Assembly (NCBI GenBank): GCA_029855935.1
Contig: JAGSHN010000005.1
Coordinates: 32,001-96,000, forward strand
Direction of reading: 5' to 3'
Source of the DNA: Candidatus Thorarchaeota archaeon
Lineage (GTDB): Archaea; Asgardarchaeota; Thorarchaeia; Thorarchaeales; Thorarchaeaceae
Length of the DNA stretch: 64,000 nt
Positions within the stretch are counted from its first letter, which is position 1. Every line of letters begins with the position of its first letter. Below the pieces are notes generated by a model that saw nothing but the letters and a program-made list of their open reading frames with translations, was not told the DNA's origin and made no database searches. Shown in pieces: positions 43,095 through 55,134 of the stretch. A program made the translations under genes and the position numbers.

Positions 43095-44543
43095 ATGGCG
43101 GTGAGCCAGAACACGAATGATGAGATTGACATCTTCTTCAGTGCCAAGAGTGTTGCAATATACGGAGCGTCGGCCACTCCGAACAGTGTCGGACAGGCTA
43201 TCGTACAGAACTTCATCAAGCCACAGTTCACGGGTAGGGTCTATGCTGTTAACCCGAAATACTCTCAAGTACTGGGAATACCATGTTATCCTTCTCTTCA
43301 GGATATTCCCGATGAGATTGATATGGTCGTGGTTGCCGTCCCAGCAAGAATCACGCCACGCGTCTTTGAGGACATTGCGGCAAAGGGTGTGAAGGCGGCA
43401 ATTGTCATATCGGGTGGATTCTCGGAAACCGGTCCCCGTGGTGCGGAACTTGAGGACCAGATAGTCAAGATTGCACGTGAGAACGGAATTCGTGTCATCG
43501 GACCCAACTGTGTTGGCGTCATCGACACAACGACCCACATTGACACCTTTTTCCTCCCTGAGTACAGATGTAGTAGGCCTCGAGCCAGCAATGTCGCTAA
43601 TATCTCGCTGGTCTCGCAGTCAGGAGCGTTTGCTGCGGCGATCGCCGACTGGACCGCCGAACTTGGAATTGGAATGTCCAAGATAATCAGCCTCGGTAAC
43701 AAGTGTGATGTGGATGATGACGACCTGCTCAGATATCTCGCCGCGGACGACTCCACACAGGTGATATGCTTCTACACGGAGGGCTATGACCCGGGGAAGG
43801 GTCGATCATTCTTCGACACAGCAAAGGAGGTGACACCGCACAAGCCAGTCATAGTCGTCAAGTCAGGCAGAGGAAAGAGGGCAAAGGAGGCGGCCAGCTC
43901 GCACACGGGATCACTTGCAGGCTCTGATCAGGTCGCGGGTGCAGCCTACAAACAGGCGGGCGTCATAAGGGCGGACAACTTCGAGCACATGTTCGATATG
44001 GCCAGGGCACTTGCAATGCAGCCACCAGCACGAGGTGATAGGGTTCTGATGGTAACGAACGGAGGGGGCCTAGGAGTGATGACCACAGATGCTCTTGAAG
44101 CGGAGGGACTCGCTATTCCGCACCCATCGCCCGAGCTTACCGAGAGGCTGCAGGAGAGGCTGCCGAGCTACTGTGCAATAGGCAATCCGATAGACGTTGT
44201 TGGTGACTCCGACTCATCAAGATACGACATAGTCTTCGAGGAGGCCCTCAAGAGCGGTGAATACGACATAGTTGTGGTCGGAATGCTTCTTCAGACCCCT
44301 ACCCTGGGGATGGACATAACCAATGTCATCGCGAACCATCAGCGTCAGTCAGGAGTCCCCTTCGTGGCAGTCGCAATGGGAGGCGCATTCACGAGTAAGG
44401 CAGGAGAGATTATGGAACTGATGGGGGTCCCAACATACGCAACTGGCGAGAAGGCTGCAGTGGCTGCAAAGGCGTTGGCTACGTATGGTGAGATCAAGTA
44501 TCGAGACAAGTTCAGGAGGACGTTGTTTCCTGATAACCCATAA
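43095..44543 (+). CDS. acdA: ADP-forming acetate/acyl-CoA ligase alpha subunit
   Basis: SVAIYGAS, ISGGFSE, RVIGPNCVG, SQSGA, SHTGSLAG (phospho-His), NPIDV. Confidence 0.93.
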   Translation: MAVSQNTNDEIDIFFSAKSVAIYGASATPNSVGQAIVQNFIKPQFTGRVYAVNPKYSQVLGIPCYPSLQDIPDEIDMVVVAVPARITPRVFEDIAAKGVKAAIVISGGFSETGPRGAELEDQIVKIARENGIRVIGPNCVGVIDTTTHIDTFFLPEYRCSRPRASNVANISLVSQSGAFAAAIADWTAELGIGMSKIISLGNKCDVDDDDLLRYLAADDSTQVICFYTEGYDPGKGRSFFDTAKEVTPHKPVIVVKSGRGKRAKEAASSHTGSLAGSDQVAGAAYKQAGVIRADNFEHMFDMARALAMQPPARGDRVLMVTNGGGLGVMTTDALEAEGLAIPHPSPELTERLQERLPSYCAIGNPIDVVGDSDSSRYDIVFEEALKSGEYDIVVVGMLLQTPTLGMDITNVIANHQRQSGVPFVAVAMGGAFTSKAGEIMELMGVPTYATGEKAAVAAKALATYGEIKYRDKFRRTLFPDNP

Positions 44544-44589
44544 ATAGGACTTGAATTCAGACGGTAAGTGAAAGAGAGGTCTGCGAGCA

Positions 44590-45309
44590 ATGAAGATTGC
44601 CAAGAAGATATTCGAAACCGCACGAAGCGAGAACAGGAGTTTTGTCTTGGAGAATGAGGCCAAGGAGATAATGAGGGCCTACGGCATTCCGGTGCCCCCA
44701 TTTGACACAGCAACCACTGCAGATGAGGCCGTTGAGAAGTCCAAAGAGATTGGATTTCCAGTCGTGTTGAAAATACTGTCGAAAGACATTCTTCACAAGT
44801 CGGATGCAGGAGGGGTCAAGGTAAATCTACGGACAGAGGATGAGGTCAGAGAAGCGTTTCAAACAATAATGGAGAATGCGAGGAAGTATGGCGAGGAGCA
44901 CGGTATTGATGTCGATCTGAGTAGAGGCGTGTTCGTTTCCAAGTTCGCAGACGAGGGCACTGAGGTCATCATCGGTGTCACACGCGACCCTCAGTTTGGT
45001 CACGCAATCATGTTTGGCCTTGGCGGCATATTTGTAGAAGTTCTCAAGGATGTGACCTTTAGGCTCATTCCTCTGACTGAGAGTGATGCCAGAGAGATGA
45101 TTAGAGAGATAAAGGCCGCAAAGATACTCGACGGGATAAGGGGACAGCCTCCACGAGACACCGACGCCCTTGTCAAGGTGATTCTTGCCGTGTCAAAAAT
45201 GGTAGAGGAGAACCCAGAGATTCGGGAGCTGGACTGCAATCCCACTTTCGTCTATGAGAAGGGCAATGGAGCGCTTGTGGTCGATGCACGAATCCTAATT
45301 GATGTGTAG
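44590..45309 (+). CDS. acdB: ADP-forming acyl-CoA ligase beta subunit (ATP-grasp)
   Basis: GFPVVLKILS..ILHKSDAGGV, DPQFG..IMFGLGGIFVE, ELDCNP, VDARI. Confidence 0.93.
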   Translation: MKIAKKIFETARSENRSFVLENEAKEIMRAYGIPVPPFDTATTADEAVEKSKEIGFPVVLKILSKDILHKSDAGGVKVNLRTEDEVREAFQTIMENARKYGEEHGIDVDLSRGVFVSKFADEGTEVIIGVTRDPQFGHAIMFGLGGIFVEVLKDVTFRLIPLTESDAREMIREIKAAKILDGIRGQPPRDTDALVKVILAVSKMVEENPEIRELDCNPTFVYEKGNGALVVDARILIDV

Positions 45310-46506
45310 TCCTCCAGCCTGTGCGTTGTACTGACGGAACATGTTTCCCAAGAGAACAAGGGCTCGCTTGATGTCCGTATCCCCGATACGACCAGCATCG
45401 GTAGTGCCAATCGCGAGAAAGAGGATCAGTGACACGAGACGTGGAACTAGCCGGGGATTATGGAGGAGGAACTCCCGCCCTTGCGACTCTGCAACCAGGC
45501 TCTCAATCCGCTGACCGAGTAGGTCTAGGCGCTCAACCGTCGAGGATTCCCGAGGCAGACGAACAAGACACTGTTCCACAAGACGGTCGTCACCGAACAT
45601 CTCCGTCTTGATACCGGCAGACTCCAGAACCGACATTGCCTCGGCCATCATAGACTCATATTCATCGGCCTCCACACGATCAATACCAGCCATTGCTGAC
45701 CGCAGTTGGACAAGAAGTCGGAACGAGTTTGTCAGGACCATTCGGATGGACCGTAGAGAGCGGCCTCTCACCGTGGGGGTCTTTGTGGATTCGAGAACAG
45801 CTGCACGGGACGACTCCAGCTTTCGTTCAAACCCCGGGGAGAGTGTCACAGATGCAATCCTAGGCAAGACTGGACTACGGCAGACTTGTCGTAGCGCACC
45901 GAGCGAGAGAAAGTCATCGGTAGGCGTGTAGAACAGCAGTATTCTCATTGTGTCGTATGCGATCTCAAAGTCGGCCTCCTCCGTCACTGAGCGGCCATGC
46001 CCGTGACACGAGAACGCACTGAGCAGGGCCCACGAGGAGAGAATCTCATCACGCAGTCTCTCACAGTTGCCCCGCTCACAGATATCATGTTCAGACAGGA
46101 ACGAGTGAATTCGTTCGGCGGCACTGTCTATTCTAGAGAGGGTTGGACCCGAGAAACGGACGGTCGAAGCCTCCCTGATGGACTCGCGGGGGTCGTACGA
46201 GGGCGGACGAATGATGAATCCGGGCTGCTCACGCGTCATCATCCACCATCGTGAGGTTGAGGAGAAGTAGTCAAGCGTGTCTACACTGGCCGTGAGTGAT
46301 GTGGAATCGGCATTGGACTGTGAACGAAGATAGGAAACAAGCCGGCAGATTAGCATCATGAACCTTGAGAGATGTGACGACATCTTGTCGCCAGCAAACT
46401 GAATGTCGGAGAACTTGTCTGTTATGAGGCTCATTCTAGAGGTGACATGGTCATCGATGAGTATGGAGATGATACCCCGGTATACCTCTAGAGGTGTCCT
46501 TGCCAA
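45295..46506 (-). CDS. Hypothetical protein, mostly helical
   Basis: 403-aa ORF with TTG start and a GGAGG-like SD region. No recognised catalytic motif. Confidence 0.6.
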   Translation of the reverse strand: MARTPLEVYRGIISILIDDHVTSRMSLITDKFSDIQFAGDKMSSHLSRFMMLICRLVSYLRSQSNADSTSLTASVDTLDYFSSTSRWWMMTREQPGFIIRPPSYDPRESIREASTVRFSGPTLSRIDSAAERIHSFLSEHDICERGNCERLRDEILSSWALLSAFSCHGHGRSVTEEADFEIAYDTMRILLFYTPTDDFLSLGALRQVCRSPVLPRIASVTLSPGFERKLESSRAAVLESTKTPTVRGRSLRSIRMVLTNSFRLLVQLRSAMAGIDRVEADEYESMMAEAMSVLESAGIKTEMFGDDRLVEQCLVRLPRESSTVERLDLLGQRIESLVAESQGREFLLHNPRLVPRLVSLILFLAIGTTDAGRIGDTDIKRALVLLGNMFRQYNAQAGGLHIN

Positions 46507-46600
46507 ACCTCATCGTCTCCTCCGACTGGAGCGGCGCGCCTGTTCTGTGGGAGTTGTCCGACAGAAACCACATATAAAACACAGTGTCACTCGCCATATT

Positions 46601-47368
46601 CTACTGACCAAAGCGGCGAGAACGACGCTCGTATGATCTCAGGGCACGCCATATGTCAATTCGCCGAACAGCAGGCCAGTATATCTGAGCAAAGTACAGC
46701 TCGGAGTAGGCCGACTGCCACAGAAGGAACCCGGAGAGACGCTCCTCGCCGGATGTCCGAATTATCAAATCGGGATCGGGGAGACCGTGAGTGTAGAGAT
46801 GCTGCTCGATGACGGACTCGTCAATCCTTGAGGGATCCAGCTCACCTCTCTGTGCCTTCTCAGCAATTGCACGGACCGCATCCACGAGCTCCGCTCGTCC
46901 CGAGTACCCAATCGCGATGTTGAGAATATGGTCCGAGTAGTGGGCGGTCGCCTCTTCGGCCATCCGGATGGCCTCACGCACATCCTCAGGAAGGAGGTCG
47001 ACACGACCAATTGCATTAATCCTGACGCGATGTCTATGGACATCCGGGTTGCTGACGACCTCGTTGAACTTCTCCTTAGCAATCTCCATTATCTCACGGA
47101 CTTCCTGTTCGTTGCGGCGAAAATTCTCCATTGAAAACGTGTACAGCGTGCAGACCTTTACTCCCGCCTCCCATAGTATCCGCAATACCTCCATGACCTT
47201 CTGAGCACCCAGTCTGTGACCATACCACGGCGCGTCCAAGCCATGCTCTCTAGCGTACCGTCGGTTGCCATCCAGGATAATTCCGACATGCCGAGGGGCT
47301 CTGTCCTTGTTCAGCTGTCGATAGAGCACGTACTCGTAGAGGCGATACATAGGCCCAGTGAGATTCAA
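46601..47368 (-). CDS. uppS: cis-prenyltransferase (polyprenyl diphosphate synthase)
   Basis: HVGIILDGNRRYA, YTFSMENFRR, PDLIIRTSGEERLSGFLLWQSAYSE, RRFG. Confidence 0.95.
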   Translation of the reverse strand: MNLTGPMYRLYEYVLYRQLNKDRAPRHVGIILDGNRRYAREHGLDAPWYGHRLGAQKVMEVLRILWEAGVKVCTLYTFSMENFRRNEQEVREIMEIAKEKFNEVVSNPDVHRHRVRINAIGRVDLLPEDVREAIRMAEEATAHYSDHILNIAIGYSGRAELVDAVRAIAEKAQRGELDPSRIDESVIEQHLYTHGLPDPDLIIRTSGEERLSGFLLWQSAYSELYFAQIYWPAVRRIDIWRALRSYERRSRRFGQ

Positions 47369-47446
47369 TTGTGTGGCACACCCCTTGCAAGGGGTCCCTC
47401 TCTAGACAACCCCCTATTAGGATTGTGAATCATGAATAGAGGGGGA

Positions 47447-47827
47447 CTATATCATCGTGGCAATCTTGCTTGCAGCCTGCTTCACGTCAATATGGACAAG
47501 CCCAATCTTGACGTTAGCAGTTGTGGAAACAGTCAGACACGCATTCAGACCAGCCTGTACGACAAGCACCCAGCCATCGGAACCCTTGACACTGACCTGC
47601 TCGAGCTCGCCCTTGCCCAGCTCGATAGCCGCCTTCTCGCCGAGCGTCAGCATAGCTGCTGTTATCGCCGCGAGCTTTGCCTCATCTACATCTGCGGGCA
47701 ACGCAGAAACGATTGGAAGCCCCTCGACGCTCACTATGGCACAGGCCTCAATCTCAGGGATATCCCCCTGAAGCTCATTGAGAATGCTTTCAAGAGTTTC
47801 GCCTCTAGACTCGCTCATTCTGCTCAC
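47447..47827 (-). CDS. Roadblock/LC7 (MglB-like) protein 1
   Basis: IEACAIVSVEGLPIVSALP...LAAITAAMLTLGEKAAIELGKGELEQVSV...KIGLV. Confidence 0.9.
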   Translation of the reverse strand: MSRMSESRGETLESILNELQGDIPEIEACAIVSVEGLPIVSALPADVDEAKLAAITAAMLTLGEKAAIELGKGELEQVSVKGSDGWVLVVQAGLNACLTVSTTANVKIGLVHIDVKQAASKIATMI

Positions 47828-47834
47828 CTGGGTG

Positions 47835-48398
47835 CTACTTGTACAGTCTTTTGAGGATTACTTCACGCGATATGGCTTGAAACGCCCTCTTAACTCCTAC
47901 GCCCTGAATGGCAATGGTTTCGTAGATCGGGACGTTGCCGCCCAATCCGAGTAGGTCGAGCATCTCTTCACGCGACATCCTGTTGGGTAGGTCACGCTTG
48001 TTGAGCATGACCACTATCGGAATTTCTCTGCCAAGAGCGTCCCCGAGAAACATCTTAAGCTCTTCGAAACTCTCCACGTTTTCCTCTCGCTGGTCTGGGG
48101 AGGAGTCGGCCACAAAGATGATGCCATCAGCACCTTGGAGGACGACCTTTCGTTGATGCCGGTGCCGTTTCTGACCAGCGACCGTGAACACGTCAAATAG
48201 AACACGTCCACCTGCGCTCATCGGTGCGTAGTCGAAGAAGAGGGTGCGATTGGTTTCGTCCTCGATCGACGTGAACTCGCCCTTCTGCAATCCCTCGACC
48301 TTTGCATAGAGCCATCGCAGTGCAGTTGTCTTCCCGCCCAGACTGGGCCCGTAGAAAACAATCTTGAAATGAATACGGCCCTTATCGTCTTTCCTCAC
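47835..48398 (-). CDS. MglA-like small GTPase
   Basis: KIVFYGPSLGGKTT, RTLFFD, TVAGQ, GADGIIFVADS, NKRDL, AIQG.GV. Confidence 0.9.
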   Translation of the reverse strand: MRKDDKGRIHFKIVFYGPSLGGKTTALRWLYAKVEGLQKGEFTSIEDETNRTLFFDYAPMSAGGRVLFDVFTVAGQKRHRHQRKVVLQGADGIIFVADSSPDQREENVESFEELKMFLGDALGREIPIVVMLNKRDLPNRMSREEMLDLLGLGGNVPIYETIAIQGVGVKRAFQAISREVILKRLYK

Positions 48399-48495
48399 AC
48401 AAACACCTCACTGATCTCTGCGCTCCGTTGATGGCAGTCACACCAGTCAGTAGATTGAACAATACCATCTTGTGGCCTCACTGTGGACAAGCGTA

Positions 48496-48610
48496 AGTCA
48501 GTTGGGAACGACGGCGGATGCCACCATGAACGGGATGGCCTCCGCAGGCGGGGAGTGTAAGAAATGTAGTCTCATAAAAGCCTTTGTCCGTCGTCTGGCC
48601 CGACTTGACT
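48496..48610. other. Imperfect nested inverted repeats, candidate structured RNA
   Basis: AGTCA-GTTGGG-A-ACGACGG (48496-48514) pairs with CCGTCGT-CTGG-CCCGAC-T-TGACT (48588-48610). Inner hairpin GCGGATGCCA/TGGCCTCCGC. Confidence 0.35.
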
Positions 48611-48634
48611 GAAACTGTGCTGTGCCGCGGACAA

Positions 48635-49105
48635 TCACACTCTCTCAAGCTCTGCAAGCGCGGACTTTAGATCTTCCTCGTCGAGCTCTCGGTCCTTTGA
48701 GGGTGCTCCGGGCTCCACAGCCAAGAACTTGTCGAGCTCCTCGGCCAGCTGCTCACCTTGCTTCTTCATCACCATTCGTATGAGGCCGATATTGACCTCC
48801 TTGGCCTCGGAAACCACGCATAGCACGCCCTTGCCGCATGCGGATGCAAAGATCTTGCCCTCTGAGAACTCCGAGGTGACAATCTCAAGCTCTCCAAGCT
48901 GCAAGTTCTTCCCCTGTTCCTCGCTTGCACAGAACACGGCACTGGCTATGGCCCCAATGCTATCAACATCAACTGCAAAGTAAGCCAACCGAGATACGTG
49001 GGCAATGGTCAGGCCAGTCTTGTCAACCAGGATCACCCTTCGAATACCGCGGTCCTGCCTGATGATGTCCGTGAGAATCTTGTCGAACCTCTTAGGATCG
49101 CTCAT
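48635..49105 (-). CDS. Roadblock/LC7 (MglB-like) protein 2 with acidic C-terminal helix
   Basis: ILVDKTGLTIA...IGAIASAVF.ASEEQG..L.LGEL...NIGLIRM; tail DEEDLKSALAELERV. Confidence 0.88.
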   Translation of the reverse strand: MSDPKRFDKILTDIIRQDRGIRRVILVDKTGLTIAHVSRLAYFAVDVDSIGAIASAVFCASEEQGKNLQLGELEIVTSEFSEGKIFASACGKGVLCVVSEAKEVNIGLIRMVMKKQGEQLAEELDKFLAVEPGAPSKDRELDEEDLKSALAELERV

Positions 49106-49118
49106 GCGTCATACCCCT

Positions 49119-49418
49119 TCAATTTGTGCTCTTCAGAACGACTAGTATCAGACCCTCCTTGACGTCGGGTGCAATGTTGATTTGACCCTTGCTCGTGTCA
49201 AGCGTTAGGAATGATAGAGAGCCCTCTCTCAGTTCCCGAACCGCCTCTAGCGCCTTTCCGACAAGAGAGGTCACAATTGCAGCAACAATCTCTGTGGTCT
49301 CGGGGTCGAGGTCGCTGCTGAGAGGAAGCCCCTCCATATTGGTGACGACAATTCCTCTGACACCCTCTTGGGCCTTCAGTCTTGAAAGAATTGTCTCGAG
49401 CTTCTCTTGGCTGACCAA
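49119..49418 (-). CDS. Short roadblock protein 3, dynein light chain LC7/DYNLRB-like
   Basis: LETILSRLKAQEGVRGIVVTNMEGLPLSSDLD...SFLTLDTSKGQINIAPD...LILVV. Confidence 0.88.
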   Translation of the reverse strand: MVSQEKLETILSRLKAQEGVRGIVVTNMEGLPLSSDLDPETTEIVAAIVTSLVGKALEAVRELREGSLSFLTLDTSKGQINIAPDVKEGLILVVLKSTN

Positions 49419-49700
49419 CCGTCGATCCCCACTATGATTTGTTGTATTTCAGCAGTCTGTACCTCACGCAGGGGTATTTTAGACTTGTGGCAATGTGTAC
49501 TTGACGGAGGCCACATTTTGCGCATTTTGACATATTCCAAATGTACTGCCTGATTCCGTCATCGAATACTCAACAATACGCGTACATCGCGATAAGGGAC
49601 GGTAGAGGTGAGGCGTTATTAAATGGTAGAAGATATAAACAGGACGTGAGAACAATTCAAGCAAGCCAGTCCACGCGATGTGGCCCGGAGGACCGTCACA

Positions 49701-50069
49701 ATGGTTGACAAAGCGAAGGTCGAGAGCATTGTAGCAGACGTGATGGCGGCCAACGCGGACATCCAAGGAATAGTTGTGTGCAACGCGAAGGGCGAGGTGA
49801 TCTTTGGTCACACCATCACTGAGGACATCAAGCATGCCGATGTAGCCAAATTGGCCGTCAAGATAGCAGGGGACTCTGCGGAGCTTGTCGCGGGCCTCGA
49901 TCAGGGGGGATTGAAGGAGGTCACGATTGCCTCTGAGAAGGGGCTGGTTGTCATCCTAGGGGACGCGGAGATAATCCTTGCAGGTATCGCCGGAGAAACT
50001 GCACGTGAGGCGATGGGTCTCATACGGATTGCACTGCGAAGAGCACTCCTCAATATGGTTGCAAAGTAA
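49701..50069 (+). CDS. Roadblock/LC7-fold protein 4
   Basis: DIQGIVVCNAKGEVI...LDQGGLKEVTIASEKGLVVI...MGLIRIALRR. GGAGG SD before ATG 49701. Confidence 0.75.
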   Translation: MVDKAKVESIVADVMAANADIQGIVVCNAKGEVIFGHTITEDIKHADVAKLAVKIAGDSAELVAGLDQGGLKEVTIASEKGLVVILGDAEIILAGIAGETAREAMGLIRIALRRALLNMVAK

Positions 50070-50270
50070 CCTTTCAGCAGCGGCTGCTCTATGGAAACGG
50101 CGTTGTTGCTTGCAAGAGTGAGGCGCAGTCGTTTGGCGCCATATCAGATATGCTAATATTGTCTTGATAATACGATGGTATTACCAAGTGTATTTAGTGG
50201 CACGTATCTTCCAGATATATCGGTGCCACGAGAGAACAGGGTGCCTCAACCGACCGGACGGGATTGTGAC

Positions 50271-53200
50271 GTGGTCTACATCGATAAACTAGTGTGCAGA
50301 GGCTTCAAGTCTTTTGGCCGTGATACCGTCACAATCAAATTCCACCCGGGCTTCACGTGCATTGTGGGGCCGAATGGTTCCGGAAAATCCAATGTCGTTG
50401 ATGCCCTTCTATTTGTACTTGGACAGCTCAGTGCAAAGACTCTGCGGGCAAATGTCTTCTCGGACCTGCTATACTCACCACCAAAACCGGGAATGCCACC
50501 CAAGGCGAAGTCTGCTCTCGTTCAGGTCCACTTCAACAATAAGGATCGAAAACTACCAGTCGATGCAGACAAGGTTGTGATAGAGCGAGAGCTCGACGAG
50601 TCGGGAAAATCGGTGTGCCGCGTGAATGGCAGGGTCGTCACTCGCTCTGCGGTCCTTGACCTTCTGAGCAGCATTGGAGTCGACCCGAACGGGTACAATC
50701 TCGTTCTCCAAGGTGAGATAGCTCAGATGGTCCAAGTCAGTCCGACAGACCGCCGGAAGCTCATAGAGGACATAGCCGGAATCTCAGCCTACGACGAACA
50801 GAAGGAACGCGCTCTCAAGAAGCTGCAGGAGAGCGAGGCCAACCTCTCAAGAGTAGAAACGCAGCTTCAGGAACGCCGTCACCATCTGGAGAAGCTCGAG
50901 AATGAGCGTGAAGACGCCCTGAGATACGAGAGCATAAAGGCGCAGATTCGAGAGATTCGTATTGACCATCTCGCTTGGACAATAGTGAGGGCACAAAAGA
51001 GGATAGCCACGATCGACACCACACTGGCCGAACGCGCCCAAGAGGCCGAGGATCTCGAGAGACAGCTGAGAGAAACCGAGAGAGAGCGCGCCAAGATTGA
51101 GCAGGAGATTGGGGAGATAGAGGAGGAGATTGACAGAGTCACTGGTGGAGAGTCCGCCAGAATCTCAGAGAAGTTTGGAGTTCTCTCCTCGGCCGTCGAA
51201 CATGCCCGACACAGCCTTGAAAGAATGGCTGAAGACATAGAGGCCAAGAGAAAGGAGAAAGAGGCCCTTGAGAGCGAACTTGAGGAGCTTCGCCGTCGGA
51301 GAGAGGCCAGTGCGACCCGAGTCAAGGAGAAACAAGAACAGCTTGAGCAATTGGAGAGGGAGATTGCTGAACGGGAGGCGCACCTCTCAAATCTGCAGAG
51401 GGCACTCCAAGAAGAGCAGGACCTCTACTACGAGACTCAGCAAAAACTTCAGGCGCTCAACGACAAGATAGTGTCACTTGACGAGCGCATTGCAGAGGTA
51501 AGGTCGAGCATCAAGACAGGAGAGCGTGAATCTCGGGCGTTGGAGGAGGATCGAGAACAGGCAGAAACTGCCCTAGAGAAGACCGCTGAGAAGCTGAGTG
51601 AGCTTGAGCACTCTATTCCCGAGATTCGAGAAGAGCTAACAAGACTTGAGGAGATGGAACAGGCCAAGCGAAACGAGCTGGAAGGTGTTGATAGACAGCT
51701 CAAGACGCTTGATGCCGAGATAGCCGAGACCCAGAAGATACTCACTGCAACCAGAGAAGAACTAATCAAAATCAAAGCACGTAGAGACGCACTGAAAGAG
51801 GCGGAGGAAGCATTTCTCAAGCGCAGGAGAGCCATCGCAAGAGTCCTCCAACTGCGTGATGAGGGTGTAGTGAAGGGCATATTTGGGACCGTCGCAGAAC
51901 TTGGAACGATTGACCCTGAACTGTCGACTGCACTGGAGATAGCGGGAGGCAGCAGACTTGGATACATTGTTGTTGAGAACGAGGATGTTGCTACGGAGTG
52001 CATCGAGATTCTAAAGAGAGAACGTGCGGGTAGAGCATCATTCATCCCTCTGAACAGGATAAAGAGCAGAAAGCCCTCGTATGTGCCAGATGACGAGAGA
52101 GTCATAGGCTATGCAATGGACCTTGTCAAGTTCAACCCACAGGTTCAGCCTGCATTCGAGTTCGTGTTTTCAGACACCATTGTCACTGAGGACTTTAGCA
52201 CCGCAAAGAGGCTCGGCTTCAAGGGATGGAGAGCAGTGTCTCTTGATGGTGATCTCGTGGAGAGGTCCGGATTGATAACTGGGGGATATCATCAGCGGAC
52301 ACCCACCGGACTCTCGTTGAAGATAGAGGACAGAAGTCCCGAGATTGAGCGTCGCCTCCAAGGACTTGAGTCGATACTTGACGAGCTTGCCGACAAGCGG
52401 AATTCGCTGGCGCGCACTCGGAGGGAACTGGAGAGGGAGATACAAGACCTCACGAAGACGAGCTACCGTATGAGAATCAAGGCCCAGCTATTTCAGGAGC
52501 AGCACACCGAACTCGTGAGCAGGCAGGAGTCCCTGAAACAGAGAATAGAGGCGATGGGAGAGAAACTGGAGAAGATACGCAGGCAGCTCGCGGAGCTCCA
52601 CGAGGAGGAAAAGAGTCTCTCCCTGAGGCGCGAGAGCCTTCTGGCAGAACGGGAGAGGTACAGTGAGCGCATTGCCCAGTCCCGTGCTATGCAGGTCGCC
52701 CGGGAGATGAGAGAGCTCCAGAAAATAGTTGAGGACCTCAAACATGCACGTGAGAGTCTGCATAGTGAGGTCACAGAGCTGACCGTGGCGCTGAGCCAGA
52801 GATACGAGCCGAGGATAGCCGAGATTGAGAACAGAATAGACGCAGTCTGTCGTGAGGTAGAGGCCCTGAAAGCAAGAGAGGCCAGTCTGCGGCAGGAGCT
52901 CGATTCCAAGGAGAGAGAACTCGAAGAAACAGGGCGGGCACGCGAGAGAATTGAGGACAGGGTCAAGGACAGACGTACACAACAGCTTGAGCTCAAGGAG
53001 CGAGCCCGAAACCTACGGTTCCGACACGAGCAAATCAGAGATGCACAGACAGCAAATGAGAAGGCGGTCTACAGACTGCAGACAGAACGGTCCAGACTTG
53101 AAACTGAGATTGAGGGATGGAGGGCCGAACTCGACACGCTCTCAGACTGTGAAGCGGAGATTCAGAAGAGGAGCTCGGAACGCGAGCCAACGTATAAGGA

Positions 53201-53861
53201 GCTCGACCAGCTGACCGACAAGATCAGGGAGCTGGAGAGAGAGCTGGAGGAGATGGGACCAGTCAACCTGAAGTCGCTCACGGACTATGATGCTGAGAGG
53301 GAGCGATACGAGGAGATAGTGGACAAGAAGGCTCAGCTCGAGGAGGAACACAAGGAGATACTGCGATTCATGGAGGAGCTTGAGAGAGAGAAGACACGAA
53401 AGTTCCTTCAGGTGTACAATGAGATTGCTGACAACTTCTCAAGAGTGTTTGCGAAACTCTCTCCGGGCGGAGAGGCCAGCCTGATGCTGGAGAATCCAGA
53501 GCATCCGCTGATGGGTGGCGTCACAGTACGGTCGAAACCGCGGGGAAAGGAGGTCGTTTCTCTCACTGCAATGAGCGGAGGTGAGAAGACGCTCACGGGA
53601 CTCGCGCTCATATTCGCGATTCAGATGTACAGTCCCGCCAGCTTCTACGTGTTCGATGAGATAGATGCGGCACTCGATGACGTGAATGCGCACAACGTTG
53701 CACTTCTGATTCAGGAGATGTCCAAGTCGTCCCAGTTCATAGTGGTTTCCCTGAGGGATGTCACCGCTCAGAAGGCCGATGTGTTGGTAGGTGTTTCGAA
53801 CCAAGACGGAATCTCAAGAATCGTCGCGGTGGACCTAGAGGAGGTGGGGGCGACAGCTTGA
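50271..53861 (+). CDS. smc: Chromosome segregation protein SMC
   Basis: GFKSF, GPNGSGKSN, Q-loop VLQG, hinge GIFGTVAELG...GRASFIPL, MSGGEK, FDEIDAALD. Confidence 0.97.
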   Translation: MVYIDKLVCRGFKSFGRDTVTIKFHPGFTCIVGPNGSGKSNVVDALLFVLGQLSAKTLRANVFSDLLYSPPKPGMPPKAKSALVQVHFNNKDRKLPVDADKVVIERELDESGKSVCRVNGRVVTRSAVLDLLSSIGVDPNGYNLVLQGEIAQMVQVSPTDRRKLIEDIAGISAYDEQKERALKKLQESEANLSRVETQLQERRHHLEKLENEREDALRYESIKAQIREIRIDHLAWTIVRAQKRIATIDTTLAERAQEAEDLERQLRETERERAKIEQEIGEIEEEIDRVTGGESARISEKFGVLSSAVEHARHSLERMAEDIEAKRKEKEALESELEELRRRREASATRVKEKQEQLEQLEREIAEREAHLSNLQRALQEEQDLYYETQQKLQALNDKIVSLDERIAEVRSSIKTGERESRALEEDREQAETALEKTAEKLSELEHSIPEIREELTRLEEMEQAKRNELEGVDRQLKTLDAEIAETQKILTATREELIKIKARRDALKEAEEAFLKRRRAIARVLQLRDEGVVKGIFGTVAELGTIDPELSTALEIAGGSRLGYIVVENEDVATECIEILKRERAGRASFIPLNRIKSRKPSYVPDDERVIGYAMDLVKFNPQVQPAFEFVFSDTIVTEDFSTAKRLGFKGWRAVSLDGDLVERSGLITGGYHQRTPTGLSLKIEDRSPEIERRLQGLESILDELADKRNSLARTRRELEREIQDLTKTSYRMRIKAQLFQEQHTELVSRQESLKQRIEAMGEKLEKIRRQLAELHEEEKSLSLRRESLLAERERYSERIAQSRAMQVAREMRELQKIVEDLKHARESLHSEVTELTVALSQRYEPRIAEIENRIDAVCREVEALKAREASLRQELDSKERELEETGRARERIEDRVKDRRTQQLELKERARNLRFRHEQIRDAQTANEKAVYRLQTERSRLETEIEGWRAELDTLSDCEAEIQKRSSEREPTYKELDQLTDKIRELERELEEMGPVNLKSLTDYDAERERYEEIVDKKAQLEEEHKEILRFMEELEREKTRKFLQVYNEIADNFSRVFAKLSPGGEASLMLENPEHPLMGGVTVRSKPRGKEVVSLTAMSGGEKTLTGLALIFAIQMYSPASFYVFDEIDAALDDVNAHNVALLIQEMSKSSQFIVVSLRDVTAQKADVLVGVSNQDGISRIVAVDLEEVGATA

Positions 53862-54574
53862 GCGATGGTCAGAGTGACGTGCCGTTCTGGGTCCAACCAC
53901 CCTACATCCTCCTCACCGATGTTCTTCAACTCGACAAGGTGCAGCCATGGAACGTCAACGTGGGGCGTCTTGTTTCCGAGTTCCTGCGCGAGATGCGGCA
54001 AATGGGGGATATAGACTTCCGTGTGTCAGGTAATGCTCTGTATTCTGCCTCAGTGATATTCATGAGGAAGACGAGAGAACTCGTCCAGATGGGAGTGCTC
54101 CCCCAAGAGGAGGAAGAAGACGAAGAGGAGCTCGAGATTCCACTCATTCGCCCACCATTCAGACTAACGAACAGAAGAGTCACGCTTCAAGAATTGATCA
54201 TTGCAATGGACCGGGTGTTGAGCCGTGGCCCGCGTCGTCGAGCCCCACCCAAAAAGAGGAGGACCAGATCGCCTCTCGGGCCACTGTCCTTTGCCGTGGA
54301 CTCTCAGCGGGCTGATGCGGAGGAAACTGTTCTGCAGGTCTATTCTGACCTCAGGGAGATGGTCGGTATTGGCAAGACGGTGCGGTTCTTCGATGTGATT
54401 ATGAGCAGTACAAGACGTGAGATTGTACGCGTCTTCTTCGCTCTGCTTCATCTCTATTCCAGGTCCTTTGTTGATATCTGGATGGACGAGGAGGATGTCA
54501 TCTGGATAAGATTGCTCGACCCTCCATCGGATGAGCAGGGTAAAGACGAACTCGCAGCCGTGGCGAGAGAGTAG
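53858..54574 (+). CDS. scpA: Kleisin ScpA
   Basis: KVQPWNVNV, IDFRVSGNAL, RRVTLQELI, FFALLHL. TTGA overlap with smc. Confidence 0.88.
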   Translation: MSDGQSDVPFWVQPPYILLTDVLQLDKVQPWNVNVGRLVSEFLREMRQMGDIDFRVSGNALYSASVIFMRKTRELVQMGVLPQEEEEDEEELEIPLIRPPFRLTNRRVTLQELIIAMDRVLSRGPRRRAPPKKRRTRSPLGPLSFAVDSQRADAEETVLQVYSDLREMVGIGKTVRFFDVIMSSTRREIVRVFFALLHLYSRSFVDIWMDEEDVIWIRLLDPPSDEQGKDELAAVARE

Positions 54575-54582
54575 GTGGTCAT

Positions 54583-55134
54583 ATGGATGACGACATAGTC
54601 ACTCTTGAGGCGGCACTCTATGTTGCCGGACGGCCGCTCACAATCACAGAGCTGGCAGCAATAATTGGCAAGGCCGAGTCCACAGCCGAGAAGCTACTCG
54701 AAGAGCTTGAGTATGAGTATCAGAAACGCAATGGAGCGCTAGAGATAGTCAGGCTCCCGCGGGACCGCTATGTGATGCAGCTCAAGCCCGAACTGACCCC
54801 GCGTGTTGGAAAGTTGATACCCGGCGGGCTTCTGTCTTTCGCCACACTTCAGACCCTAGTCTACATTGCGCTGAAACAGCCAATCCTCCAATCGGAGCTG
54901 GCAATGCAGCGAGGTACACAAGTATACGACCATATCAGGGAACTCGTAGAGAAGAAGTTCGTAGAGGCCACCCCACAGGGCCGTTCGAAGATTCTCAGGA
55001 CAACCACACTCTTCGCGGACTACTTTGGTCTCGACCACGATGTGGTCAGGATGAAGGCTCAGTTGAGGTACAAGATGAAGCAGATCCTGCAGCAGCAGTC
55101 TGCCGAAGGGATGACAGGGGGGAGGAGTACCTAG
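54583..55134 (+). CDS. scpB: Kite subunit ScpB
   Basis: LEAALYVAGRPL, TLVYIALKQPI, RG..VYDHI.EL, TT..FADYFGL. Confidence 0.92.
   Translation: MDDDIVTLEAALYVAGRPLTITELAAIIGKAESTAEKLLEELEYEYQKRNGALEIVRLPRDRYVMQLKPELTPRVGKLIPGGLLSFATLQTLVYIALKQPILQSELAMQRGTQVYDHIRELVEKKFVEATPQGRSKILRTTTLFADYFGLDHDVVRMKAQLRYKMKQILQQQSAEGMTGGRST

Follow-up and report, generated by a model that had tools for sequence, protein, structure and literature searches.

Why should one small GTPase be encoded together with four different roadblock proteins? This question is raised by a locus of Candidatus Thorarchaeota archaeon (assembly GCA_029855935.1), where five short genes for one MglA-type GTPase and four roadblock proteins, named here RB1 to RB4, lie within a 64,000-nucleotide stretch of contig JAGSHN010000005.1 (positions 32,001 to 96,000, forward strand). 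We call this whole stretch the window and give coordinates in its numbering; the genome around it comprises 2.97 Mb and is 97% complete. Asgard archaea are the closest archaeal relatives of eukaryotes. To our knowledge, their genomes encode dozens of small GTPases and roadblock/longin proteins, of which almost none has a known partner. An initial annotation of the window proposed that the locus may encode a heteromeric "proto-Ragulator" or a polarity switch. Our comparison of sequences, gene orders and predicted structures suggests a small-GTPase switch of the MglA/MglB kind, in an old Asgard version whose set of roadblock partners is enlarged, and we put the probability of this reading at roughly 60%.

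The components of such a module are already in print, namely the Asgard MglA1 GTPases, the structures of Asgard roadblock and RBLC7 proteins, and bacterial systems in which MglA has one or two MglB partners. In a survey of 2014, Group 1 MglA was found in bacteria only (PMC4316618), and MglA1 is listed among the Asgard GTPase groups in a later preprint (10.1101/2024.02.28.582541). Moreover, three roadblock/longin families and two small-GTPase families were counted among the Asgard core genes (Liu et al., 10.1101/2020.10.19.343400), and these may include genes of the present cluster. Our full-text literature searches, whose coverage did not extend to Klinger et al. 2016 or to the supplements of Liu et al. 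2021, found no description of the five-gene cluster. Articles and preprints given with an identifier are cited here for the portions of their text that were available.

Results

On the minus strand, the gene order is RB3 (49119-49418, 99 aa), RB2 (48635-49105, 156 aa), mglA (47835-48398, 187 aa) and RB1 (47447-47827, 126 aa), while RB4 (49680-50069, 129 aa as called) is encoded divergently on the plus strand. This order and these coordinates match the list of open reading frames (ORFs), and the layout described in the initial annotation is thus correct. RB2 starts 13 nt past the stop codon of RB3 and RB1 starts 7 nt past that of mglA, with 236 nt between RB2 and mglA. An independently assembled 27-kb contig, possibly from the same sample, showed zero differences over positions 47000-51000. 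No Rfam match was found in 44000-55000 at E <= 0.1.

The GTPase and its MglA identity

Group 1 MglA proteins are defined by an Arg finger beside the switch-I Thr, by TVPGQ instead of DxxGQ, by an insertion between G1 and G2 and by coupling with MglB (Wuichet and Sogaard-Andersen 2014, PMC4316618). The GTPase of the locus carries the P-loop GPSLGGKT, the pair R51-T52 (Arg finger and switch-I Thr), TVAGQ as G3, NKRD as G4, and a basic C-terminal helix. Among solved chains, it scored 141.5 bits with MglA of Thermus thermophilus and 137 bits with Myxococcus MglA, against 50 bits for the best Arf. Its alignment to Thermus MglA (query 8-61 with 12-65) runs without a gap through G1 and G2, and thus the insertion typical of bacterial MglA is present. 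In this alignment NRTLFFD pairs with ERTLFFD and TVAGQ with TVPGQ, so that G3 retains Thr, Val, Gly and Gln and has Ala in place of Pro. The two MglA signatures pointed out in the initial annotation, the intrinsic Arg in NRTLFFD and the unusual FTVAGQ, are both present in the translation. They are also highly conserved: among 77 distinct orthologue sequences, R-T-[LIV]-[FY]-F-D occurs in 74, T-x-A-G-Q in 75 and NKxD in all 77. For the coupling asked of Group 1, to an MglB-family gene within four genes, RB2 lies 236 nt upstream and RB1 7 nt downstream of mglA. Judged by its sequence, the GTPase is a Group-1-type MglA with its own predicted arginine finger (R51) and catalytic glutamine (Q76). 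An Arf-like or SR-beta-like identity (Pfam Arf, 55.6 bits; public names "ADP-ribosylation factor-like" and "SRP receptor beta") was dropped, because the MglA score is nearly three times higher than the best Arf score among the solved chains.

The identity of MglA is 87-95% inside its own family and order, and 50-66% to the best match in other families of the sample. A search of a library with 1.84 billion representatives gave 273 matches to it at E <= 1e-30. Among the named clusters, those nearest to it are of Hermod-, Odin-, Hod- and Thorarchaeota (63% identity), followed by Lokiarchaeia including Promethearchaeum syntrophicum (53%) and by one Korarchaeota record (48%).

The genome contains two more MglA-type paralogues, at C21:257830-258741 (52% identical) and C17:125264-125848 (39%; contigs of the genome are designated C and a number). 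The former has an N-terminal extension of 120 aa and is present in other genomes of the family searched (23/24 rows). Neither is flanked by genes of the RB1-RB4 orthogroups; the C17 copy adjoins a gene for a 335-aa roadblock-containing protein. In addition, a second cluster of GTPase and roadblock genes lies on a single strand at C28:124996-127388, comprising a roadblock (120 aa), an Arf-like GTPase (220 aa), a weak roadblock-like ORF (144 aa) and another roadblock (122 aa).

RB2, a roadblock built like MglB

RB2 scored 41.8 bits with the Pfam model Robl_LC7 (cut-off 23). In the search of its profile against solved chains, Myxococcus MglB was best at 31 bits. The AlphaFold2 (AF2) model of RB2, with a mean predicted local distance difference test (pLDDT) score of 73.3, has a roadblock core, a flexible linker of low confidence at about residues 130-142 and a C-terminal helix at 143-155, and Foldseek aligned the model with MglB and further roadblocks at template-modelling (TM) scores of 0.75-0.80, normalised by the target. 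Myxococcus MglB uses the acidic C-terminal helix of one protomer to engage a basic pocket on MglA's last helix, which stimulates nucleotide exchange, and the acidic and basic features co-vary (Baranwal et al., PMC6785124). The same combination of a D/E-rich C-terminal helix with a K/R-rich last MglA helix was found here: the last 25 residues have a net charge of <= -3 in 65/67 RB2 orthologues and of >= +3 in 73/77 MglA orthologues. This complementarity, which resembles the co-varying MglB/MglA signature of that paper, supports the pairing of MglA with RB2. As far as sequence and predicted structure tell, RB2 is built like MglB, with roadblock core, linker and acidic C-terminal helix. In a maximum-likelihood tree the RB2 clade had support of 98/98, and RB2 is single-copy in the genome.

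In two distant lineages (L106:4598-4629 of Jordarchaeia and L116:6900-6952; L and a number denote loci of other genomes), the RB2 orthologue carries a short frame-breaking insertion at a similar place, after "..YYPV" and before "DGIGAI". The insertion in L106 is about 32 nt long, and its stretch gives a helix-bulge-helix-bulge-helix fold (-29.3 kcal/mol, z -3.7), so that it looks like an archaeal splicing motif within a protein-coding gene. RB2 of the window is intact, without such an insertion.

RB3, a roadblock of the dynein light chain type

RB3 is short and has no C-terminal helix; its alignment to RB4 and RB1 stops after the last strand. It scored 66.5 bits with Robl_LC7, and its profile gave 135 bits across the entire solved Asgard chain 7f8f. 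Moreover, the profile matched eukaryotic DYNLRB, including human chains, at 84 bits (E 4e-23), whereas other prokaryotic roadblocks reached at most 41 bits. Short length, absence of the helix and affinity to DYNLRB1 chains place RB3 in the RBLC7/dynein light chain type. For the RBLC7 homodimer whose structure is solved, Tran et al. (2024, PMC10933270) suggested a groove that binds a helix. RB3 resembles this chain in its size of about 95-100 aa and in the missing helix, and differs in the location of its gene in an MglA cluster, a context without mention in the available text of that paper.

Orthologues of RB3 were found in 130 of the 151 genomes of the phylum that are at least 80% complete, covering 22/25 families, and nearly always in one copy; their public names include Jord-, Frey-, Atabey-, Loki-, Heimdall-, Hod-, Odin-, Hel- and Thorarchaeota. 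The RB3 clade (support 98/99) includes one further gene of the same genome, and a distant RB3-like relative is encoded on C16. We know of no dynein in archaea.

RB1, RB4 and the relations among the roadblocks

The initial annotation counted four roadblock proteins. RB1, RB2 and RB3 stand above the Robl_LC7 cut-off (RB1 at 58.5 bits); RB4, at 20.5 bits, stays under it, and its place among the four comes from other evidence. The RB4 profile aligned with the RB1 profile at 98.3% probability (hhalign, E 1e-14) and reached 75.7 bits with the solved chain 9jq8, 10 of the 11 aligned RB4 orthologues matched Robl_LC7 at E <= 0.01, the AF2 model (pLDDT 83.8) has the order alpha-beta-beta-alpha-beta-beta-beta-alpha, and solved roadblock dimers were the best Foldseek matches of this model. 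Thus, on sequence profiles and the model, RB4 is a full-length roadblock despite its Pfam score. It forms a clade with support of 100/100 and is single-copy in the genome. Its orthologues begin at the position equivalent to ATG 49701. Similarly, the true start of RB1 may be an ATG 9 nt further in. RB1 is a full-length roadblock of generic kind, and its profile matched the solved Asgard roadblocks 7f8m and 9jue at 115 and 103 bits, and CvnB5 of an actinobacterial conservon (3leq) at 64 bits. At least seven looser paralogues of RB1 are present in the genome. No paper turned up in our literature search on the PDB codes 9JUE and 9JQ8.

The four proteins are related at a distance. Each scored 125-275 bits with the hidden Markov model (HMM) of its own orthogroup and 20-45 bits with those of the other three, and profile-profile alignment (hhalign) of all pairs gave probabilities of 90-98% at merely 17-28% identity. 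The C-terminal helix is present in RB1, RB2 and RB4 and absent in RB3 alone. By these comparisons, RB1 to RB4 are old and distinct paralogues. Over 46 loci the mean distances were 0.14 for MglA, 0.19 for RB2, 0.26 for RB1, 0.35 for the adjoining housekeeping prenyltransferase, 0.40 for RB3 and 0.69 for RB4; MglA, RB2 and RB1 therefore evolve more slowly than the prenyltransferase, and RB4 is the fastest of the four roadblocks. Correlation of the distance matrices in the same 46 loci (mirror-tree) distinguished no pair, every pair giving 0.90-0.96 raw and 0.51-0.71 after removal of the prenyltransferase distance.

Conservation of the cluster

For Thorarchaeia we compared 75 named loci, whose titles are Thorarchaeota, Promethearchaeota, "archaeon" or "uncultured archaeon" except for one Hermodarchaeota (L104), and counted each gene over the loci with enough flanking DNA. 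RB1 was found in 71/73, RB2 in 62/66, RB3 in 60/63 and RB4 in 45/54 of them. Six of the nine RB4 misses arise because insertions of 1.7-3.9 kb between RB2 and mglA push RB4 beyond the 5-kb flank. The same gene order occurs in five loci of Jordarchaeia.

A synteny survey of the kind suggested in the initial annotation, in which 24 families (numbered with the prefix f) were represented by one to three genomes each and the regions were centred on the best MglA match or on an RB3 match, showed that the cluster recurs in many Asgard genomes. Ten of the 24 families have the core RB3-RB2-MglA-RB1 without interruption (f1, f2, f4, f7, f8, f12, f13, f16, f17 and f19, with RB1 inverted in f4), RB4 stands beside it in eight of these ten, and f18 follows the pattern as far as the contig end. 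In f3 and f21, RB1 to RB4 are clustered and mglA is elsewhere or absent from the region. In f9 and f23, only the pair RB3-RB4 is together, and MglA (186-198 bits), RB2 (217-239 bits) and RB1 (117-182 bits) are encoded elsewhere. It is evident that the cluster is not a product of chance, because the scores with the orthogroup HMMs are distinct and the arrangement recurs in many genomes.

Similarity to Ragulator subunits

Some results speak for a relation with Ragulator. At a threshold of E <= 0.01, all eight RB2 orthologues matched the LAMTOR3 model (MAPKK1_Int; best E 5.4e-9) and all 11 RB3 orthologues the LAMTOR5 model (best E 2.6e-7), and LAMTOR2 appeared at 21 bits in the search with the RB2 profile. 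In the window, RB2 reached 24.2 bits with MAPKK1_Int (cut-off 25) and RB3 28.4 bits with LAMTOR5 (cut-off 27), each lower than its Robl_LC7 score. On the other hand, the GTPase is of the MglA type, a single domain without a C-terminal roadblock domain, and Gtr1_RagA matched it at 18.3 bits, below the cut-off of 22. Ragulator contains two full-length roadblock subunits (LAMTOR2/3) and two truncated ones (LAMTOR4/5) (PMC10933270), whereas three full and one truncated are encoded here. The nearest eukaryotic relatives of RB3 are dynein light chains; in its profile search LAMTOR2 had 19 bits, and LAMTOR4 and LAMTOR5 were not among the matches. A LAMTOR1-like wrapper was not among the neighbours in the Pfam scan, no genome-wide LAMTOR1 search having been made. 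Furthermore, a different Asgard operon, with a LAMTOR1-like protein, a Rab-like GTPase and DENN, is the Ragulator/folliculin-like candidate in Liu et al. (10.1101/2020.10.19.343400).

Spacers, candidate promoter and neighbouring genes

The spacer between RB2 and mglA contains the motif AAAGGCTTTTATGAGAC (48569-48585, minus strand), which occurs once in the window against 0.01 times expected by chance. Its core GCTTTTAT is visible in 14 of the 15 aligned Thorarchaeial spacers, the remainder of which is variable. The motif looks like an archaeal TFB recognition element (BRE) with a TATA box, a candidate promoter of mglA-RB1. From this BRE/TATA-like motif ahead of mglA and from the gene spacing, we infer three transcription units, namely RB4, RB3-RB2, and mglA-RB1, the last perhaps running on into the prenyltransferase gene. 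The divergent intergenic region of RB3 and RB4 (49419-49679, 261 bp) contains TATA-like boxes, seen by eye only.

The RB2-mglA spacer (48399-48634) is also an insertion hot spot in Thorarchaeia, where about 20 loci have 0.9-3.9 kb of extra DNA; in one of them (L038:1076-5000) the extra DNA carries, on the opposite strand, a gene for a membrane protein of 600 aa. Outside Thorarchaeia this spacer is mostly 15-99 nt, and 185-464 nt in three loci. The gap between RB4 and RB3 is 261 bp here; where both genes are visible, most of the other loci have 1.8-2.0 kb in its place, and so do the two closest relatives, L031 and L033 (94-95% MglA identity). Other Thorarchaeota have in this gap a gene of about 540 aa with a zinc ribbon and a von Willebrand factor A (vWA) domain (e.g. 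L031:2183-3808). It is absent here, and therefore the cluster of MglA and roadblocks needs no such neighbour. Its only relative in the genome, 43% identical, is at C30:52481-54082 (VWA and Sec23_trunk, 37.9 bits).

Downstream of RB1, after a spacer of 78 nt (47369-47446, minus strand) with two short G+C-rich hairpins and no T-run as judged by eye, lies a gene for a cis-prenyltransferase of the UPP synthase family (46601-47368, minus strand; Prenyltransf, 260 bits). It follows RB1 in 66 of the 69 named loci with enough DNA and in several other families. Throughout Thorarchaeia it is followed by an ORF of 403 aa (45295-46506, minus strand) at 30-55% identity, for which Pfam and NCBIfam gave no match and a language-model search gave weak helical-repeat leads (best 0.82), below the trusted level. 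On the other side, RB4 is followed by genes for SMC (1228 aa) and ScpA (238 aa; SMC_ScpA match) at 50175-54574 on the plus strand. SMC adjoins RB4 in Thorarchaeia, Jordarchaeia, f2, f6, f12 and f19, and lies within about 3 kb in f3 and f21. For the prenyltransferase as for SMC-ScpA, being a neighbour does not imply membership of the module. These conserved neighbours, together with acetyl-CoA synthetase, are genes of housekeeping function and offer no clear hint at the output process.

Discussion

A probable MglA/MglB-type switch with additional roadblocks

The Group-1-type MglA and an RB2 that has the MglB architecture including the acidic C-terminal helix support, by homology, the "polarity switch" half of the initial annotation. 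The module shares with MglA-MglB of Myxococcus and Thermus the GTPase family, the Arg finger, Thr for Asp in G3, the gapless G1-G2 insertion, the roadblock neighbour with an acidic C-terminal helix and the basic last helix of MglA. By analogy with these systems, a dimer containing RB2 would sit on the switch face of GTP-bound MglA and reposition R51 and Q76, which would be the GAP (GTPase-activating protein) step, and the acidic tail of RB2 would dock on the basic last MglA helix and tune nucleotide exchange, as in Myxococcus. RB1, RB3 and RB4 might form further dimers, either homo- or heteromeric, that bring in, position or modulate the MglA-RB2 pair and connect it with effectors, like Myxococcus MglC (PMC13408092). 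Because the C-terminal helix is missing, RB3 probably has a groove, which could take the helix of a partner in the manner proposed by Tran et al. (PMC10933270). As to the output, our best guess would be a cue for position or polarity, given at the membrane or the cytoskeleton. For the host archaeon, we know of no gliding or type IV pilus polarity.

The comparison with bacteria also brings out differences. G3 is TVAGQ here and TVPGQ there, one roadblock here is truncated and resembles dynein light chains, and four distinct roadblock genes accompany mglA, where the surveyed coupled systems have one or two (PMC4316618). The initial annotation had regarded bacterial MglA as paired with one MglB. 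This premise was too narrow, as published systems include some with two MglB for one MglA (PMC4316618), and the accessory MglC and the co-GAP RomY have been described as well (PMC13408092); involvement of more than one roadblock protein is thus a further likeness.

Several results weigh against an MglA-RB2 switch as the centre of the module. The sequence link between RB2 and MglB is weak: the NCBIfam equivalog of Thermus MglB gave 25.2 bits against a cut-off of 200, outside curated MglB membership, and the best solved MglB reached merely 31 bits, for which reason we call RB2 MglB-like rather than a member of that family. In the fold search with RB2, Asgard roadblocks, MglB and LAMTOR2 all came near E 1e-9, and the subfamily is not separable. 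The RB2 orthologues of f9 and f23 matched the profile over approximately positions 3-133 only, and thus the acidic tail may not be universal. Moreover, RB3 and not RB2 is directly beside mglA in four families (f5, f14, f24 and f25), and so RB3 could be the primary partner, though this adjacency is over-represented because most of the regions of these families were chosen by their RB3 match. Finally, the tree did not resolve the RB1 orthogroup as a clade from the other paralogues of the genome.

Two other systems are instructive for the proposed MglA/RB2 switch. The actinobacterial conservon, with the sensor kinase CvnA, the roadblock CvnB, CvnC and the MglA-like GTPase CvnD, likewise couples a roadblock to an MglA-family GTPase in a conserved operon, and its CvnB5 is the match of RB1 mentioned above; CvnD, however, belongs to Group 2 and is without the Arg finger (PMC4316618), and the ORF list and the Pfam scan show no kinase or CvnC-like gene at the Thorarchaeota locus. 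The Arco/Dip oscillator of Haloferax volcanii, consisting of the GTPase ArcoA, the SepF-like ArcoB and the FtsZ antagonist ArcoC, is a case of an archaeal Ras-superfamily GTPase and a small regulator that set a spatial pattern, and shows what such modules can do in archaea. It differs in its GTPase family, which has an N-terminal amphipathic helix, and in its regulator, which is SepF-like and not a roadblock; its operons are full in Jordiarchaeia and mostly split in Heimdallarchaeia, and no further Asgard class is mentioned in the available text (bioRxiv 10.64898/2026.07.23.738820).

Heteromers, historical neighbours and Ragulator

Alternatively, the four paralogues may be obligate heterodimers (for example RB2-RB3 and RB1-RB4, or RB3-RB4) that build one multi-subunit MglA platform of Ragulator-like architecture, not necessarily by descent, so that the asymmetric use of two MglB protomers in bacteria would here be fixed in two genes. 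RB2, RB3 and RB4 are each single-copy apart from the distant RB3-like gene on C16, RB3 and RB2 are spaced by 0-26 nt in most Thorarchaeial loci, the four genes remain clustered even in families whose mglA has left the cluster (f3 and f21), and RB3-RB4 is an adjacent co-directional pair in 5/5 genomes examined from f9 and f23. In addition, the truncation of RB3, which it shares with LAMTOR4/5 and the dynein light chain, leaves room for a foreign helix (PMC10933270), and Myxococcus MglA receives the C-terminal helix of just one MglB protomer (PMC6785124). In contrast, solved chains that were made alone are homodimers, namely 7f8f of the RB3 group, 9jq8 ("Roadblock2 homodimer") and 9jue ("Roadblock3 homodimer") (PMC10933270), of which 7f8f and 9jq8 are matches at the level of orthologues to RB3 and RB4 and 9jue is an ambiguous match to RB1. 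The distance-matrix correlations favour no pair, and RB4 was not found in the two genomes searched from f5 and f14, so that a fixed four-part complex is not universal. We regard obligate heterodimers as possible but doubtful. Their fullest form, in which all four roadblocks join one hetero-oligomeric MglA platform with an asymmetric RB2-containing pair as GAP and exchange factor and an RB3-containing pair with a helix groove, seems to us rather unlikely. If it were true, multi-roadblock GTPase platforms with the architecture of Ragulator would predate eukaryotes, and the RB3 lineage, the closest prokaryotic relative of DYNLRB found here, would have begun as a subunit of an MglA switch.

The genes may also be neighbours for historical reasons only, with the roadblocks serving other GTPases or partners and the cluster persisting through the conserved core block of acetyl-CoA synthetase, prenyltransferase and SMC-ScpA. 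The genome indeed has many candidates for such partners (13 small-GTPase and 17 Robl_LC7 matches), the flanking housekeeping genes are conserved along with the cluster, and the cluster is broken up in several families (f5, f9, f14 and f23). Nevertheless, three of the four orthogroups of roadblocks occur in one copy and almost throughout the phylum, as seen in the genome counts for RB3, the roadblock genes remain adjacent after loss of mglA or the flanks, the tails of MglA and RB2 are complementary in charge, and spacings of 7-13 nt suggest co-translation. Taken together, mere historical neighbourhood is improbable.

A true proto-Ragulator, whose four roadblocks would be the direct ancestors of LAMTOR2-5 in an archaeal precursor of the Ragulator-Rag nutrient-signalling scaffold, is very improbable, and this half of the initial annotation does not pass the comparisons that could be made: the GTPase of the locus is not of the Rag type, the subunit types are three plus one, and the profiles find MglB and dynein light chain before any LAMTOR. 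Given this GTPase and a roadblock set of three full-length proteins and one truncated one, descent from or to Ragulator is not supported. What remains is a loose architectural analogy only. Both systems have several subunits of roadblock fold, full and truncated, around a small-GTPase system (PMC10933270), whereas a Rag heterodimer with roadblock C-terminal domains stands there and a single MglA domain here, and the similarity to LAMTOR models is here secondary to generic roadblock, MglB or dynein matches.

Significance

Read as an enlarged MglA/MglB switch, the cluster is a matched set of one GTPase and four nearly single-copy roadblocks that stay together across much of the phylum, and it names the likely regulators of one G protein. 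Orthologues exist in cultured Asgard archaea, such as the protein of Promethearchaeum syntrophicum in the 53%-identical MglA cluster, and three solved chains, 7f8f, 9jq8 and 9jue, match the profiles of RB3, RB4 and, ambiguously, RB1. The five small soluble proteins allow a direct test of whether roadblock heteromers or multi-subunit GTPase platforms existed before eukaryotes. Moreover, the cluster bears on the role of the ancestor of the dynein light chain roadblock and on MglA switching outside bacteria.

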